A stretch of DNA of 64,000 nt, taken from positions 1,302,001-1,366,000 of the forward strand of contig JADEYG010000009.1 of NCBI GenBank assembly GCA_016906335.1, given 5' to 3'. Shown here in pieces: positions 34,413-47,286 of this stretch. The notes under the pieces are model-generated. The model worked only from the letters and a program-made list of their open reading frames with translations, ran no database searches and was not told the origin of the DNA. Positions within the stretch are counted from its first letter, which is position 1; each line of letters starts with the position of its first letter. This DNA is from Novakomyces olei (taxonomy: Eukaryota). A program made the position numbers and the translations under genes.

Positions 34413-37336
34413 CTACATAATCGAGCAATCTTCTGGCCGGAATCCGTATATAACACGGTCCACGTCCCGTTTTACCCGCAGCCAGTCCGTCCGGCACTGT
34501 GCAAACTCGTAAACGTCCTCGGGCCGAAGTACACCAGCAAACCGGGCCACATCGCTCACTACTTGGCCAACGGCTTTGCCATCGCAACCATCAATAATAA
34601 AGATATTGCCTACTTCCTTTAGGGCTACAAAATAAGGCATAATCTCTGACTGACGAAGGGAGTCGATATAGTGGTGGTACAGGTTCATATCGCTAATAAA
34701 CACAATACCCCCGTCCAGAGTGACACGCTGCCTTTTTATATGCTTACACAGGACACTAAACAAACGAATGGCGACTTCCTGGTAGAACACATCCAACACG
34801 TTCTTATCCGTGTTTCCCACCAGCAGCTTCAGATGGTCGTCGAGGCACTTGACCACCAGTTTAGCCGCCACTGTAGGACCCAACTCGTCCGGTCGCCCGT
34901 TGCCCAGCAAAACTGCAGGCGGCCTGTAATCCTCTGGCAGCTGCTGAGTCAATAGTATATACTCAACCTGACCCATAAGCACATCGATGCCCTTATGCAG
35001 TCCTGCGGCAACGTACTCGTCAATCATTTGCTCAAACTTTTTCTTTTCTTTGACCACCGGGTTCAAGAAATCAGATTTATCAACAAGGCCCTCCATTTCC
35101 CGCGCGTAAAAGACGTCCACCATTTGCTGTATTAGATCACCGACACTCACCAGCTCGAGAAATACTACGAGCGGCTGAACTTTGGCAGCAGAAGCTTCAA
35201 CCGTTGAAGAGCTGGATACCCTCTGGCTTCTTTGCTGGAGCATTTCCCGCTCCTGCCGAGGATTGTACGCAGACAAGTGTAGCAGCGCCTGGTTGAATCC
35301 TACTTTTACATGCTTGTCACCGAGATACTGCAAAAGCGTAACAAACATTGTCTGGCAGGCAGCAGTAGCGTCCTGGCCAAGTTGGCCATTGAGCGATGTA
35401 AAGGACCGGACTTGCCCCATACACGTGCGGCAATTATGGATCAACTGGAGCGCGACTTCCAGGCTGAAAAGCGAACGAATGCCCTCCAGACGATGGGCCA
35501 TAATTGCAGCCTGCGCCGCCAGCTCTGTTGTAGGCAGATCGCTCTCTGTTGAGCTCTTGCCCTGCTGTACTATTGTGGGCGAAGAATCATTTGCTGTGTT
35601 GGCTGAAGGCGGCGGCGACGAGGAAGACGATTGATGGAAGGCTTTCGGTATCGCTGTCACCGGCATGAGAATCATTTTCTGGAATGAAGCAAGAAAATTG
35701 CCTTTCGAGACGTCTCTGCTCACATTGCTCAGCAGAAGAGATTCTGTGGTTTCCGACTCGGTTTTCAGCTGGATTTTTAGTTTAAGGGTAAATTGAATAA
35801 AGAAATAATATTATATGTATATATACATGACAAAAGAGGAAAAGCAATAAAATATTATACAAACCTTTTCGGTGTAAGCATCAACCTCTGCTCTGCATTT
35901 TTCTGATAATGTTTCTGTTTCTTCCCGCAAAAACAAGGCGAGTTCGTGTTCAAATCCAGGCTGAAAAGCGGATATAATTTCTGTCTTGTCGACGGCTTCT
36001 ATAATTATTTTATTTTGAACGAGCCGATCAGTCAATTGTAAGCAAAGATCGAACGAGCCGGAAACGGCCTTCATGTATAACTGAGTTTCATCATTGGGGA
36101 TGCTTTCAAGAAGCATCGTAATGTATTTTGAAAATCCTTCACGAAGTAGTAACAGAACAAGACCCCGTAAAGGCTTAAATTCCACGGGGAAAGCGGTGCT
36201 TGCAACTTTTGCCTGCTTGTCCAGGGTATCGGCGATAGCGGAAAGAAGGCTCAGCATAGGCTCGAAATGAATTTCGGTCTCATTGTTCCTGACATTAGAA
36301 TATGGGACTGGAGAAAATTGCGGAGTGTAAACGATTCAGCAAGGTCCTGGTAGAGTGAATGAAAAATAAATAAAAATATATAGTAGACATAGCAAAGTTT
36401 CGTTAATGATCAGGCTAAAAAAATATAGCTTTGTAGCAAATACGAAAATAATAGCTCATCAAAAAAGCTTTTCACTTACGTCAAACAGTCACGCGGGTCC
36501 CTAAACTGCATACACTGCGTCAAGAAAAATGTTTTATATGCTTCAAAAGCGGCACGTCCACCATTTAGAAGTATCAGTACATTAGAGAACCTTCTTATCC
36601 CGTCTGCCCGATCAGGCAGGGCAAAACATTGGCCCAATTCTTGCAGACAATGCCCCTCAAACTCTTCCGTTATTTCTATACGTCGTTTTTCCCGCTCTCT
36701 CCAGAGTGGAATCAGCAAAGGGCCTAGACGCGAAAACTTTGCAAACTCGTTCAATACACGAGCCTTTTCTTCCGGTTCACTAAATCGAACAAATAGCAGA
36801 GAGTTGGAATTCATGTCGGTCAGGTTCCTAAATGCCGGCCAAAGCGCACACCAGATTTGAGCAAACTGTAATTTCGCTCGCCGGCCATAAGCTCCCTGCA
36901 AACGAAGTGCAGTCAACAGCCTGGGCTTATCGTGCTCACTGTTAAAGCGCAATAGATCAATACAATGGCACTGCTCCAGAGCCTTAGAAATATGCTGCTC
37001 TTCCACGTACTCGATACTTTTTTTCTCGGTCAATAAATCCTCTTTTCTGTTTCTGACTTGAAGGCTTCTCCGTCTTGCACTACGCAGACGCCTTTCATTT
37101 TCTCGCGCTTGTGTCACGTCCCAGACACCAATTCTTTGAAGAGGCTCAATCCATACTTCGTCACGATCAGCCAAGTCACGAAACCGTTGGCACGTCTGTG
37201 CAAACCGGCCACGTGCTTTTACGGGCAGCAGGTAAAGCACTTCAATGAAGAACGAGTCGGGTAGTGCAGAACAAAGATTCCCTGACCGAAGGGTTCTGTC
37301 AGCCGGATCTGCTGCCATAATGTTGGCATATCTCAT
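34413..37336 (-). CDS. RCY1: F-box protein with Sec10-like C-terminal domain (Rcy1/Pof6 recyclin), 3 exons
   Basis: N-terminal F-box (LPDSFFIEVLYLLPV...FAQTCQRFRDL); KGNFLASFQKMILMPV, GIRSLFSLEVAL, VAAGLHKGIDVL; CaaX end CSIM. Confidence 0.9.
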
Positions 37337-37431
37337 AAAATTGTTGGCCCTGCTTTATCCATCGTCTCATACAGAGCCTTACTGGGGGTTTTGCTGAATT
37401 GCTCAATGACCTTGCTGGATGCTTGGTTCGC

Positions 37432-37682
<251 letters not shown>

Positions 37683-39826: not shown

Positions 39827-40070
<244 letters not shown>

Positions 40071-41854: not shown

Positions 41855-42048
41855 ATATATAGCGGAGCTCCAAAATACTCGTATATTCATATAAAATTAT
41901 GGGTCCTACAAGTGTAATGCAAAAGATAGTTCATTTCTATGAATCTGTAATGGCTATACACATATGAAAATAAAGACAGCGAATAATGCGCATCCGGCCA
42001 TCACCGATGTTCTCAGCAGGCGGGTAACTAAAAATTCGAGATAACAAA

Positions 42049-42951
42049 CTACTCGAGCTCGTCCACCGACTTTTTGAGTCGCTCAAGCATAAAAGTCTCA
42101 TAGTTACCATAAACTTTCAGTTTCTCCTTGCTTGCATCCGGAACCCGTTTGAATTCTTCGTCAAGCTCGAACCATTCTGAATTGTTGCAGACATCGTCAG
42201 CAAAGATAGCCCAAAACTCAGCCCATGAATTAGCCCAAACGACATGTTCCTCTTCGTCCCGTCCAGACGTAATGACCTGACCTTCTCGTCCCTTTGGCCC
42301 CGGCACGAAATCCAGGCTGATACTGTTCCCGCATCCATCGGCCGTAAGGGGAATCCATTTAGGATGAGCGTAAAAAGACCCAACAGCATCCGCTGGAAAA
42401 GATGTAAACTCCATCTCGCAATCGTATCCGCACTTTGAACCAGCTCCAAGAGACTCAAGAACCTCCGTCCAGCATGTGTGCTCGTCTTTTATGTGTTCCG
42501 TATCCAGTAACGAATGAGTGCTCAAGAAATCGTCCCCACTCCTATCCTGGCCATTGTGCACGGACAAGTACTCGCGTACATCCTGAGGCAGCTTGACACC
42601 CACTTTGCTCTCTACCTCGTCCAGCTCTTGCTCAGTAGCACCCGGGTTTAAAGAGAAATACGCCAAATCAATCTTCTTACTGTACTTGTCCTTGATCCGC
42701 TGCCACGAGTCCGCAACCGCTGGCGGATCTGGCCAGCTTCGTAGGGGATTGCGTTCAACGAAAAATAAACCCCAGCCTGGGTTCCGAGGAAGTTTTGCGC
42801 GCAGCTCTTTTTGTGCCGAAGACTTGGCCCCTCTTTCGGTTTTGTTTGCAGTAGATCCCTCATCCGATCCCAGAGGATTGCTGCTGCTTGGTGAATCGTT
42901 GTTAGAGTCACTCAACGACTGTCCCTCGGCCTGGCTTGCTTTGCCAGACAT
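42049..42951 (-). CDS. SMI1/KNR4 (SUKH) family protein, copy 1, 300 aa, intronless
   Basis: VADSWQRI, LNPGATEQELDEVESKVGVKLPQDVREYLSVHNGQ, YAHPKWIPLTADGCGN.ISLDFVPGPKG..GQVITSGRD, ANSWAEF resemble the Knr4/Smi1 core. Confidence 0.9.
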   Translation of the reverse strand: MSGKASQAEGQSLSDSNNDSPSSSNPLGSDEGSTANKTERGAKSSAQKELRAKLPRNPGWGLFFVERNPLRSWPDPPAVADSWQRIKDKYSKKIDLAYFSLNPGATEQELDEVESKVGVKLPQDVREYLSVHNGQDRSGDDFLSTHSLLDTEHIKDEHTCWTEVLESLGAGSKCGYDCEMEFTSFPADAVGSFYAHPKWIPLTADGCGNSISLDFVPGPKGREGQVITSGRDEEEHVVWANSWAEFWAIFADDVCNNSEWFELDEEFKRVPDASKEKLKVYGNYETFMLERLKKSVDELE

Positions 42952-43121: not shown

Positions 43122-43285
<164 letters not shown>

Positions 43286-43526
43286 GTTATCTCCAAGATA
43301 ACTTTTTCCCTTGTTTCCTAAATAGGTAAAGAGGACGCCTTGCCCACGTTAACAAGAAGAAGTCCTTTAAACAAAGAAAGTACCTTGTTCTTGGATTAAC
43401 TATAAATACAAGGCCACGTCCCATAGGTTCCGTAGAATTGTTAAATTGTTTTACTGAAAATCTACAGCTTCTAAACTATCTTTAGATTCATAGCAGAAAG
43501 CGCGATTGTTACAATCAACCACTAAC

Positions 43527-43737
<211 letters not shown>

Positions 43738-43974
43738 AAATCATCGATCATCGATGCTATATAGCGGAGCTCCGAAATACTCGTGTATTCATATAAAATT
43801 AGGGGTCCTGTTTGTTTCCCCGTATTTGCGCCATACAAGTGTAATGCAAAAGATAGTTCATTTCTATGAATCTGTAATGGCTATACACATATGAAATAAA
43901 GACAGCGAATAATGCGCATCCGGCCATCACCGATATTTTCAGAAGGCAGGTAATTAACTACTCGAGGAAACAAA

Positions 43975-44877
43975 CTACTCGAGCTCGCCCACCGACTTTT
44001 TGAGTCGCTCAAGCATAAAAGTCTCATATTCATCATAAACTTTTAGTTTCTCCTTGCTTGCATCCGGAACCCGTTCAGAATGTTCGTCAAGCTCGAACCA
44101 TTCTGAATTGTTGCAGACATCGTCAGCAAAGATAGCCCAAAACTCAGCCCATGAATTAGCCCAAACGGCATGTTCCTCTAAGTCCCGTCCAGACGTAATG
44201 ACCTGACCTTCTCGTCCCTTTGGCCCCGGCACGAAATCCAGGCTGATATTGTTCCCGCATCCATCGGCCGTAAGGGGAATCCATTTAGGATGAGCGTAAA
44301 AAGACCCAACAGCATCCGCTGGAAAAGATGTAAACTCCATCTCGCAATCGTATCCGCACTTTGAACCAGCTCCAAGAGACTCAAGAACCTCCGTCCAGCA
44401 TGTGTGCTCGTCTTTTATGTGTTCCGTATCCAGTAACGAATGAGTGCTCAAGAAATCGTCCCCACTCCTATCCTGGCCATTGTGCACGGACAAGTACTCG
44501 CGTACATCCTGAGGCAGCTTGACACCCACTTTGCTCTCTACCTCGTCCAGCTCTTGCTCAGTAGCACCCGGGTTTAAAGAGAAATACGCCAAATCAATCT
44601 TCTTACTGTACTTGTCCTTGATCCGCTGCCACGAGTCCGCAACCGCTGGCGGATCTGGCCAGCTTCGTAGGGGATTGCGTTCAACGAAAAATAAACGCCA
44701 GCCTGGGTTCCGAGGAAGTTTTGCGCGCAGCTCTTTTTGTGCCGAAGACTTGGCCCCTCTTTCGGTTTTGTTTGCAGTAGATCCCTCATCCGATCCCAGA
44801 GGATTGCTGCTGCTTGGTGAATCGTTGTTAGAGTCACTCAACGACTGTCCCTCGGCCTGGCTTGCTTTGCCAGACAT
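43975..44877 (-). CDS. SMI1/KNR4 (SUKH) family protein, copy 2 (chimera of copies 1 and 3)
   Basis: Same motifs as copy 1; intact 300-aa ORF. Confidence 0.9.
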   Translation of the reverse strand: MSGKASQAEGQSLSDSNNDSPSSSNPLGSDEGSTANKTERGAKSSAQKELRAKLPRNPGWRLFFVERNPLRSWPDPPAVADSWQRIKDKYSKKIDLAYFSLNPGATEQELDEVESKVGVKLPQDVREYLSVHNGQDRSGDDFLSTHSLLDTEHIKDEHTCWTEVLESLGAGSKCGYDCEMEFTSFPADAVGSFYAHPKWIPLTADGCGNNISLDFVPGPKGREGQVITSGRDLEEHAVWANSWAEFWAIFADDVCNNSEWFELDEHSERVPDASKEKLKVYDEYETFMLERLKKSVGELE

Positions 44878-45047: not shown

Positions 45048-45058
45048 CATATTATTGC

Positions 45059-45139
<81 letters not shown>
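45048..45139. repeat. (TAT)n microsatellite upstream of KNR4-like copy 2
   Basis: Directly visible; shorter than the equivalent tract in unit 1. Confidence 0.95.
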
Positions 45140-45380
45140 GTTATCTCCAAGATAACTTTTTCCCTTGTTTCCTAAATAGGTAAAGAGGACGCCTTGCCCA
45201 CGTTAACAAGAAGAAGTCCTTTAAACAAAGAAAGTACCTTGTTCTTGGATTAACTATAAATACAAGGCCACGTCCCATAGGTTCCGTAGAATTGTTAAAT
45301 TGTTTTACTGAAAATCTACAGCTTCTAAACTATCTTTAGATTCATAGCAGAAAGCGCGATTGTTACAATCAACCACTAAC

Positions 45381-45583
<203 letters not shown>

Positions 45584-45820
45584 AAATCATCGATCATCGA
45601 TGCTATATAGCGGAGCTCCGAAATACTCGTGTATTCATATAAAATTAGGGGTCCTGTTTGTTTCCCCGTATTTGCGCCATACAAGTGTAATGCAAAAGAT
45701 AGTTCATTTCTATGAATCTGTAATGGCTATACACATATGAAATAAAGACAGCGAATAATGCGCATCCGGCCATCACCGATATTTTCAGAAGGCAGGTAAT
45801 TAACTACTCGAGGAAACAAA

Positions 45821-46723
45821 CTACTCGAGCTCGCCCACCGACTTTTTGAGTCGCTCAAGCATAAAAGTCTCATATTCATCATAAACTTTTAGTTTCTCCT
45901 TGCTTGCATCCGGAACCCGTTCAGAATGTTCGTCAAGCTCGAACCATTCTGAATTGTTGCAGACATCGTCAGCAAAGATAGCCCAAAACTCAGCCCATGA
46001 ATTAGCCCAAACGGCATGTTCCTCTAAGTCCCGTCCCGACGTAATGACCTGACCTTCTCGTCCCTTTGGCCCCGGCACGAAATCCAGGCTGATATTGTTC
46101 CCGCAATAATCGGCCGTAAGGGGAATCCATTTAGGATGAGCGTAAAAAGACCCAACAGCATCCGCTGGAAAAGATGTAAACTCCATCTCGCAATCGTATC
46201 CGCACTTTGAACCAGCTCCAAAATCCCCAAGTGTCTCCATCCAGAGTGTGTGCTGGTCTTCTATGCCTTTTGTATCCAGTATCAAATAAGTGCTCAAGAA
46301 ATCGTCCCCACTCCTATCCTGGCCATTGTGCACGGACAAGTACTCGCGTACATCCTGAGGCAGCTTGACACCCACTTTGCTCTCTACCTCGTCCAGCTCT
46401 TGCTCAGTAGCACCCGGGTTTAAAGAGAAATACGCCAAATCAATCTTCTCACTGTACTTGTCCTTGATCCGCTGCCACGAGTCCGCAACCGCTGGCGGAT
46501 CTGGCCAGCTTCGTAGGGGATTGCGTTCAACGAAAAATAAACCCCAGCCTGGGCTCAGAGGAAGTTTTGCGCGCAGCTCTTTTTGTGCCGAAGACTTGGC
46601 CCCTCTTTCGGTTTTGTTTGCAGTAGATCCCTCATCCGATCCCAGAGGATTGCTGCTGCTTGGTGAATCGTTGTTAGAGTCACTCAACGACTGTCCCTCG
46701 GCCTGGCTTGCTTTGCCAGACAT
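45821..46723 (-). CDS. SMI1/KNR4 (SUKH) family protein, copy 3
   Basis: Same motifs as copy 1; intact 300-aa ORF with a divergent central patch. Confidence 0.9.
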   Translation of the reverse strand: MSGKASQAEGQSLSDSNNDSPSSSNPLGSDEGSTANKTERGAKSSAQKELRAKLPLSPGWGLFFVERNPLRSWPDPPAVADSWQRIKDKYSEKIDLAYFSLNPGATEQELDEVESKVGVKLPQDVREYLSVHNGQDRSGDDFLSTYLILDTKGIEDQHTLWMETLGDFGAGSKCGYDCEMEFTSFPADAVGSFYAHPKWIPLTADYCGNNISLDFVPGPKGREGQVITSGRDLEEHAVWANSWAEFWAIFADDVCNNSEWFELDEHSERVPDASKEKLKVYDEYETFMLERLKKSVGELE

Positions 46724-46888
46724 TTTGGTAAAATGGCTCGTCTATATGATTAAACTGACCAATCCTCACCTTGAAGGGTCTATGACAAACACGCCATACT
46801 GTACAGCCAATTTATACAGCGGCTTGCTGCCTTGTTTTTCTCATACCGCCCACGCTCCTTGTACCATGGATGCCATGTCATTTTCTCA

Positions 46889-47286
<398 letters not shown>

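Follow-up and report, generated by a model that had tools for sequence, protein, structure and literature searches.

Why should near-identical tandem genes differ over 23 codons almost only in the amino acids that they encode? The question is raised by a stretch of 64,000 nucleotides from Novakomyces olei (contig JADEYG010000009.1, positions 1,302,001 to 1,366,000), referred to here as the window, which carries three KNR4-like genes that we call c1, c2 and c3 (coordinates in Table 1). From the letters of the DNA alone, an original prediction had explained the variable patch by positive selection on a ligand-binding surface of three near-identical paralogs, as expected in an arms race. We consider the patch to be a specificity-determining surface that is kept diverse between the copies against homogenising gene conversion, and we give this reading a probability of about 50 %. 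Positive selection is not proven by these data.

The patch comprises codons 146-168, which read HSLLDTEHIKDEHTCWTEVLESL in c1 and c2 and YLILDTKGIEDQHTLWMETLGDF in c3. Our codon comparison reproduced exactly the predicted tally for this segment, with 13 of the 23 residues changed and one purely synonymous codon (T151, ACG/ACA), and the patch of c3 lies inside the predicted interval 46220-46290. For the whole gene, about 26 amino acid differences and about three synonymous changes between c1 and c3 had been expected; the comparison gave 26 nonsynonymous and 3 synonymous codons, together 40 nt. Because 9 of the 10 unchanged patch residues keep the identical codon, the patch is not a tract with 'ordinary' synonymous divergence. 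The clustering of the differences is far beyond chance: 19 of the 27 coding differences between c2 and c3 fall into one interval of 67 bp, which was not reached in any of 100,000 random placements (p<=1e-5), and the same two units differ at 27/903 coding positions vs 1/486 in the flanks (Fisher p=1.6e-4). Besides the patch, the changes found only in c3 are R56L, N57S, K92E, G206Y (GGA>TAT) and a synonymous one at S229. The c1 sequence combines the c1-type patch (HSLLDTEH...) with C-terminal variants of its own (S210, E233, V237, EFK266-268, GN282-283 and D297).

The differences are spread very unevenly along the repeated units, each taken as a gene with its flanks. Between units 1 and 3 we counted 1/141 substitutions in the 5′ flank and 3/435 in codons 1-145 (0.7 % each), 19/67 in the patch (28 %), none (0 %) in codons 169-205 (one substitution counted there belongs to codon 206), 7/179 in codons 206-265 (3.9 %), 10/105 in codons 266-300 (9.5 %), 10/40 in the first 40 nt of the 3′ untranslated region (UTR; 25 %) and again none in the next 101 nt of the 3′ flank (0/101; 0 %). 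The middle unit joins the two patterns. Of the 51 aligned sites that distinguish units 1 and 3, the first 26 in gene direction carry the unit-1 letter in unit 2, and 24 of the 25 that follow carry the unit-3 letter; the one in codon 229 does not. The 5′ part of c2 (codons 1-206), including the patch, is c1-type and its 5′ flank is identical to that of unit 1; from codon 210 onward the gene is c3-type, and the 3′ flank does not differ from the unit-3 one. The c2 gene is thus a hybrid of the outer copies, which is what a single recent unequal crossover within a two-copy array, between a c3-c1 pair, would produce. Since c2 is a hybrid, the window holds two independent lineages and not three, which qualifies the original prediction: the paralogs are indeed near-identical outside the islands of divergence, but they are recombination mosaics of only two lineages.

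By sequence and by fold, the three copies are short-form members of the SMI1/KNR4 (SUKH-1) family. Over residues 104-246 all three match the Pfam family SMI1_KNR4 (PF09346), with 71.2, 66.8 and 61.5 bits for c1, c2 and c3 at a cutoff of 25.4, and phmmer links c3 to the solved core of yeast Knr4 (8aj2_A, E=2e-20); a profile search reached E=1.6e-65 against the same structure. The AlphaFold model covers c1 residues 70-300 and was built from an alignment of 73 library homologs and c3, which is also used below. The model has a predicted local distance difference test (pLDDT) score of 87.5 and a predicted template modelling (pTM) score of 0.87, and it shows the SUKH order of a two-stranded unit, helix H3, a four-stranded meander and a C-terminal helix. 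In Foldseek it matched Knr4 core structures with template modelling (TM) scores of 0.78-0.86 and E 1e-17, and more weakly FBXO3, Syd (3ffv) and YobK (2prv). With yeast Knr4/Smi1 (PDB 5J1B and 8AJ2) and its fungal counterparts FgKnr4 and ZtKnr4 the array proteins also share a low-complexity, Ser-rich N-terminal extension before the core. However, they do not have the canonical fungal Knr4 architecture, in which the C-terminal region is long and disordered and a large loop follows H3. At 300 aa they end shortly after the core, without the long C-terminal tail of yeast Knr4, and the large yeast loop (yeast 189-217), an insertion relative to the profile, is short. The best structural match of the model includes the loop-deleted construct 8aj2.

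The relatives of these proteins are distant. An exhaustive search of representatives gave 2335 matches at E<=1e-3, of which the top-scoring one has 40 % identity; none of the 150 listed matches exceeds 48 %, so there are no close relatives among them for codon models. A word-index search for homologs yielded one match among 1021 candidates, at 36 % identity and useless for estimating the ratio of nonsynonymous to synonymous divergence (dN/dS, omega), and a scan of metagenome contigs with c3 gave 270 pattern matches and no confirmed relative. All three copies replace residues that are conserved in the family: G141D (G in 61/73 homologs), G145T (55/73), W158H (55/73) and F229S (64/73). These replacements mark a divergent sub-lineage of the family.

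Where does the patch lie on this fold? It corresponds to residues 77-99 of the model, a block with pLDDT 90-98 to which DSSP assigns strand beta2 (E78-79) and a helix (H82-99). By its topology in the model, the patch helix is H3 of the SUKH fold. In the excerpt of Zhang et al. 2011 (PMC3113570) used here, helix H3 and a fissure in the sheet are described as forming a cleft that accommodates partner proteins, and by analogy with those other SUKH proteins H3 may have a role in binding here as well. The changes within the patch avoid the positions that are strongly hydrophobic in the family. Six positions (148, 149, 151, 154, 158 and 161) are hydrophobic in at least 85 % of the 73 homologs, and only one of them is changed, conservatively (L148I), vs 12 of the 17 other patch positions (Fisher p=0.05). 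Across the domain as a whole, the changes fall on positions that vary in the family (mean entropy 3.02 vs 2.23 bits, p=0.004; 73 homologs). The pattern suggests that the buried, family-conserved side of H3 was kept and that the exposed side was replaced.

We also aligned contigs of two public runs (X1 and X2), and partly of a third one (X3), on unit 3 (45740-46860); the tallies of differences are partial, as 32 further differences fall outside the listing. Record 4 of X1 has the c3-type patch without any difference, and record 10 of X2 has the c1-type patch, including all 19 differences. A third patch type, present in both X1 and X2 on a 127-nt contig at 46223-46349, has most of the c3-type letters plus extra changes, 11 differences from c3 in total. 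Seven of these were decoded, as T145L (2 nt), Y146H, D156Y, Q157Y (2 nt) and a synonymous change at Q135; all six decoded nucleotide changes within codons 145-157 are nonsynonymous. Both runs moreover contain a diverged N-terminal variant with 10 differences and a 3-nt insertion (after 46615) in 147 nt, including K43N, K48E, G61E and F63L as well as synonymous changes at codons 50, 55 and 64. Across the copies several codons take more than two states: E, Q or Y at 157, G, R or E at 61, and EFK, HFK or HSE at 266-268.

The same contigs show that small clusters of differences reassort between copies and strains. At codon 206 every overlapping contig of X1, X2 and X3 has the c1-type letters, GGA>TAT being absent, and no contig of these runs that covers codons 56/57 has the c3-only letters there. 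In these runs a patch of the c3 type occurs together with codons 56/57 and 206 of the c1 type, and in record 9 of X2 the c1-type GN282-283 is joined with the c3-type HSE266-268. The third patch type, the N-terminal variant and HFK at 266-268 show that X1 and X2 hold one or more additional copies or alleles, more diverged and located outside the window. The unitig depth in X1, about 1050 for type-specific and about 4100 for shared sequences, would fit about four copies, although depth is not copy number and serves as a hint only.

The reading of the patch as a specificity surface would work as follows. Unequal crossing-over and gene conversion would keep the tandem array nearly uniform, and a few islands of old divergence would persist on the homogenised background. 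The largest island would recode beta2 and the solvent-facing side of the cleft-lining H3 and leave the buried side unchanged. Each copy would then bind a different partner or partner variant through its patch, and diversifying or balancing selection would remove those conversion events that erase the difference. We favour this reading because the core of the helix is kept while its surface is replaced, because the point estimates of omega exceed 1, because single codons take three states and the patch types occur intact in other runs, and because the bacterial SUKH orphan-immunity arrays described in the part of PMC12247911 used here show a like clustering of variation at an interface. It is further favoured by the nonsynonymous divergence of the patch, which reaches about threefold the level of codons 266-300, the other old coding island (there about 9 of about 82 nonsynonymous sites, an estimate), although both regions are equally variable across the family. 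At 17 of 55 nonsynonymous sites, this divergence is raised in comparison with the total noncoding sequence of units 1 and 3 (11/283, p=2e-8) and with the 142-nt 3′ flank (10/142, p=4e-5). We also count in its favour the depletion of third codon positions, which hold 2 of the 19 patch differences (one-sided p=0.024) and 8 of the 41 in the whole gene (p=0.039), the sole nominally significant result within the gene. Since the omega estimates exceed 1, strong purifying selection is excluded.

Several results weigh against selection. By the method of Nei and Gojobori (NG86), the patch has 2.0 synonymous (Sd) and 17.0 nonsynonymous (Nd) differences on 14 and 55 sites respectively, which gives an omega of 2.5 with a binomial p=0.23, and the whole gene has an omega of 1.7-1.8 (p 0.21-0.34). 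When 19 random mutations with the observed mix of transitions and transversions were placed in the patch, they caused on average 11.5 amino acid changes; 13 or more were reached with a probability of 0.26, and at most one synonymous codon with a probability of 0.20. A simulation that shifted the differences between c1 and c3 along the whole gene while preserving their clusters gave P(Sd<=obs)=0.15 and P(syn codons<=3)=0.32. A uniform-placement simulation had indicated a synonymous deficit (P=0.0046); it was discarded as it ignores the clustering, and the cluster-preserving version gives P=0.15-0.32. About 78 % of the sites are nonsynonymous, codons with multiple hits are nearly always nonsynonymous, and the multi-nucleotide clusters (GGA>TAT, GAA>TTA and 5 nt within codons 266-268) inflate the nonsynonymous counts whatever the selection. 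The nonsynonymous excess is no greater than unselected mutation yields.

Other observations point the same way. The 3′ UTR island of unit 1 (42009-42048 vs 43935-43974 and 45781-45820 in an ungapped alignment) follows right after the stop codon, has no indels and is as dense as the coding patch, so dense clusters in this array need no selection at the protein level; compared with this island (10/40), the nonsynonymous divergence of the patch is not raised (p=0.65). The synonymous divergence of the patch (2/14 sites) is about 80 times the level of the flanks (p=0.002), and therefore the patch is an older or imported tract within a recently homogenised unit; it did not arise as a series of new point mutations that selection favoured in a young duplicate. 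The lineages are few, with the two independent ones in the window. The exposure of the changed residues was judged indirectly, from helical periodicity and hydrophobicity in the family. The scan of 40 open reading frames (ORFs) with Pfam revealed no binding partner, toxin or conflict-type neighbour in the 64-kb window. The original prediction thus stands in part: positive selection retains omega point estimates above 1, and no dN/dS test within the gene is significantly above 1 (p 0.15-0.34); the ligand-binding surface agrees with the position of the patch on beta2/H3 and the sparing of its hydrophobic positions, within the limit on exposure just given; and the arms race found no backing, as no toxin, effector or other partner lies among the Pfam matches in the window, which are all housekeeping.

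A neutral conversion mosaic, the main rival, is quite possible instead. The patch would then be a short imported or left-over tract on a weakly constrained surface of a redundant, recently amplified gene, with no selection for diversity; tracts would be exchanged among the array members and more diverged paralogs, with an omega of about 1 on the exposed side and purifying selection only on the buried helix face. Such a history would account for the split of nonsynonymous and synonymous changes, which is indistinguishable from unselected mutation, for the noncoding island of similar density, and for the raised synonymous divergence of the patch, which is expected of an old or foreign tract. Recent and ongoing recombination between copies is visible in c2, the other runs carry other combinations of the clusters (the c3 patch with c1-type 56/57 and 206, or GN282-283 with HSE266-268 in X2), and the more diverged fourth copy with its divergent N-terminal segment is a possible donor. 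The changed positions may simply be the family-variable ones, and the Pfam score falls from c1 to c3. However, a donor with 57 % amino acid divergence and ordinary constraint should be nearly saturated at synonymous sites, and nearly all unchanged residues of the patch keep their codon. Neutrality also sits poorly with a nonsynonymous divergence about three times that of codons 266-300, equally variable in the family, with the depleted third positions, with at least three states at single codons across the copies and with both full patch haplotypes being intact in other runs.

Could the patch and the smaller clusters have been made at once, by one or few events of error-prone repair or template switching? 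Outside the patch, 13 of the 21 differences between c1 and c3 lie in clusters of at most 7 nt (codons 56/57, 206, 233, 266-268 and 282-283). The change GGA>TAT in c3 affects three bases flanked by identity, is absent from the contigs of all three runs, and arose either by multi-nucleotide mutation or by micro-conversion. Transversions are common among the changes (24 transitions and 16 transversions among the 40 differences between c1 and c3, 12 and 7 in the patch), and an alternative alignment, the one used for the X1 contigs, explains the EFK/HSE cluster by a deletion of 1 nt and an insertion of 1 nt. Yet a random burst of 19 changes is unlikely to spare the conserved core (p ~0.05) and the third positions (p=0.024). 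Intermediates such as HFK at codons 266-268 speak for stepwise change and against a single event, and so does the third patch type, with its mostly c3-type letters and further changes; in addition, no base-specific bias is seen. We therefore regard a mutational origin as improbable. Two specific mutators were rejected: repeat-induced point mutation requires C:G to T:A transitions only, yet 16 of the 40 differences in the gene and 7 of the 19 in the patch are transversions, and mutagenesis of the type of diversity-generating retroelements is contradicted by the codon list, which has no base-specific (adenine-specific) bias. That the divergence is an artefact of assembly or collapse is hardly credible. 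Tandem repeats between long microsatellites are hard to assemble, but both patch types and the unit-1 type of the 3′ UTR were recovered from contigs of independent public runs and all three ORFs are intact, so we rejected it. At the position of codon 206, aromatic residues occur in several homologs (W in 10/73, Y or F in three sequences).

The three intact ORFs of 300 aa lie on the minus strand between an INSIG-like gene and a cyclophilin gene, with unit spacings of 1926 and 1846 bp, and tblastn of the 64-kb window identified no copy beyond them. Unusually long and pure (ATT)n/(TAT)n/(TTA)n microsatellites of 30-133 units flank every array unit as well as neighbouring genes, and their lengths vary between the units. 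These repeats may promote misalignment and unequal exchange. The window is gene-dense and looks like a fungal chromosome arm. Among its 40 ORFs, the Pfam scan (E<=1e-5) found housekeeping families only: enolase, proteasome ATPase, AICAR transformylase, eIF3m, condensin subunit 2, Sec10, the mitochondrial pyruvate carrier, EF-Ts, INSIG, cyclophilin, eIF2-gamma, an NFX1-type zinc finger protein and kinesin. Eleven ORFs had no match, and the same scan showed no secretion system, recombinase or mobile element in the window.

Table 1. Features of the KNR4-like array and its surroundings, in positions of the window
Feature	Position	Strand	Description and evidence
c1	42049-42951	-	300-aa SMI1/KNR4 (SUKH-1) paralog, downstream-most in gene orientation; ORF, Pfam PF09346 E=1.5e-19 at aa 104-246, codon comparison
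c2	43975-44877	-	Hybrid copy, one private change G61R; ORF, Pfam E=3.7e-18, codon comparison
c3	45821-46723	-	Upstream-most copy, divergent patch; ORF, Pfam E=1.6e-16, phmmer to yeast Knr4 core 8aj2 E=2e-20
Patch in c1	42450-42516	-	c1-type, identical to c2 patch
Patch in c2	44376-44442	-	c1-type, identical to c1 patch
Patch in c3	46222-46288	-	Codons 146-168, 19 nt differences from c1/c2 in 67 bp
Switch from c1-type to c3-type in c2	44249-44376	-	Between patch end or codon 206 and codon 210
Second island, specific to unit 1	42009-42156	-	First 40 nt of 3′ UTR and codons 266-300 (10 in 105 nt); borders 101 identical nt
Codon 206 in c3	46106-46108	-	GGA>TAT, G>Y, three-base change flanked by identity
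Spacer c1/c2	43124-43738	.	Two long (TAT)n microsatellites, 43124-43285 and 43528-43738
Spacer c2/c3	45050-45584	.	(TAT)n microsatellites 45050-45139 and 45382-45584, lengths unlike those of c1/c2 spacer
(TTA)133 microsatellite	46891-47286	.	Upstream of c3, array edge
Further microsatellites	37448-37636, 39829-40069		Near neighbouring genes
F-box-like ORF	36479-37354	-	PF12937, E=3.8e-6; directly upstream of Sec10-like ORFs; may be a gene of its own or an N-terminal exon of the Sec10-like gene

How does the array compare with known systems? A short, highly divergent and mostly nonsynonymous specificity segment within an otherwise conserved gene is known from fungal allorecognition genes such as Neurospora het-c. 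A short divergent segment of this kind is expected where recombination erodes divergence around a site under balancing selection. Unlike the array, het-c varies as alleles at one locus and not as tandem paralogs, and it belongs to an unrelated protein family. We know of no incompatibility phenotype for the array genes. Nor do we know of any toxin-neutralising activity of their products, and the window (40 ORFs, Pfam E<=1e-5) contains no linked toxin gene of the nuclease, deaminase or contact-dependent inhibition (CDI)/Rhs C-terminal domain kind.

Bacterial SUKH immunity genes, as the excerpt of PMC3113570 describes them, form tandem arrays of diverging paralogs, and in orphan-immunity arrays the nonsynonymous single-nucleotide polymorphisms cluster at the predicted effector interface, according to the part of PMC12247911 cited above. 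These bacterial systems, which are associated with type VI secretion (T6SS), polymorphic toxins or rAID orphan immunity, share with our array the superfamily, the tandem diverging paralogs and the nonsynonymous clustering at an interface. On the other hand, the array in the window is eukaryotic, its copies are more than 90 % identical rather than deeply diverged, and no toxin gene is linked to them in the 64 kb. That the array is a fungal counterpart of those immunity arrays, an amplified and recombining Knr4-like repertoire with H3 diversified for different partners, is doubtful. Such partners might include killer toxins, effectors that bacteria inject, or a fungal protein in its non-self variants; gene conversion would keep the scaffold uniform and at the same time redistribute the specificity patches among copies and strains.

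Among fungi, the part of PMC11717356 consulted describes a 1:1 orthologue of Knr4 for F. graminearum and one single orthologue for Z. tritici, and treats Knr4/Smi1 as a conserved single-copy hub of cell-wall signalling and a possible antifungal target. The array departs from this canonical single orthologue by being tandemly amplified and mosaic, with at least three copies in the window and a fourth type in other runs. In PMC3113570, as far as the excerpt goes, the ancient eukaryotic SUKH lineages PGs2 and FBXO3 have no lineage-specific expansions, unlike the bacterial ones. Keyword searches of one library returned no report of tandemly amplified or positively selected fungal Knr4-like genes, which is not proof of absence. 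Among the papers listed for a solved interface between a SUKH immunity protein and its toxin, none was relevant.

The locus carries a caution, in that 26 nonsynonymous to 3 synonymous codons are no evidence of positive selection when the changes are clustered, often multi-nucleotide and located within a recombination mosaic. At the same time, amplified and reshuffled Knr4-like genes that differ mainly on one cleft-lining helix would represent a natural set of specificity variants, with which the eukaryotic ligands of the SUKH cleft could be revealed.

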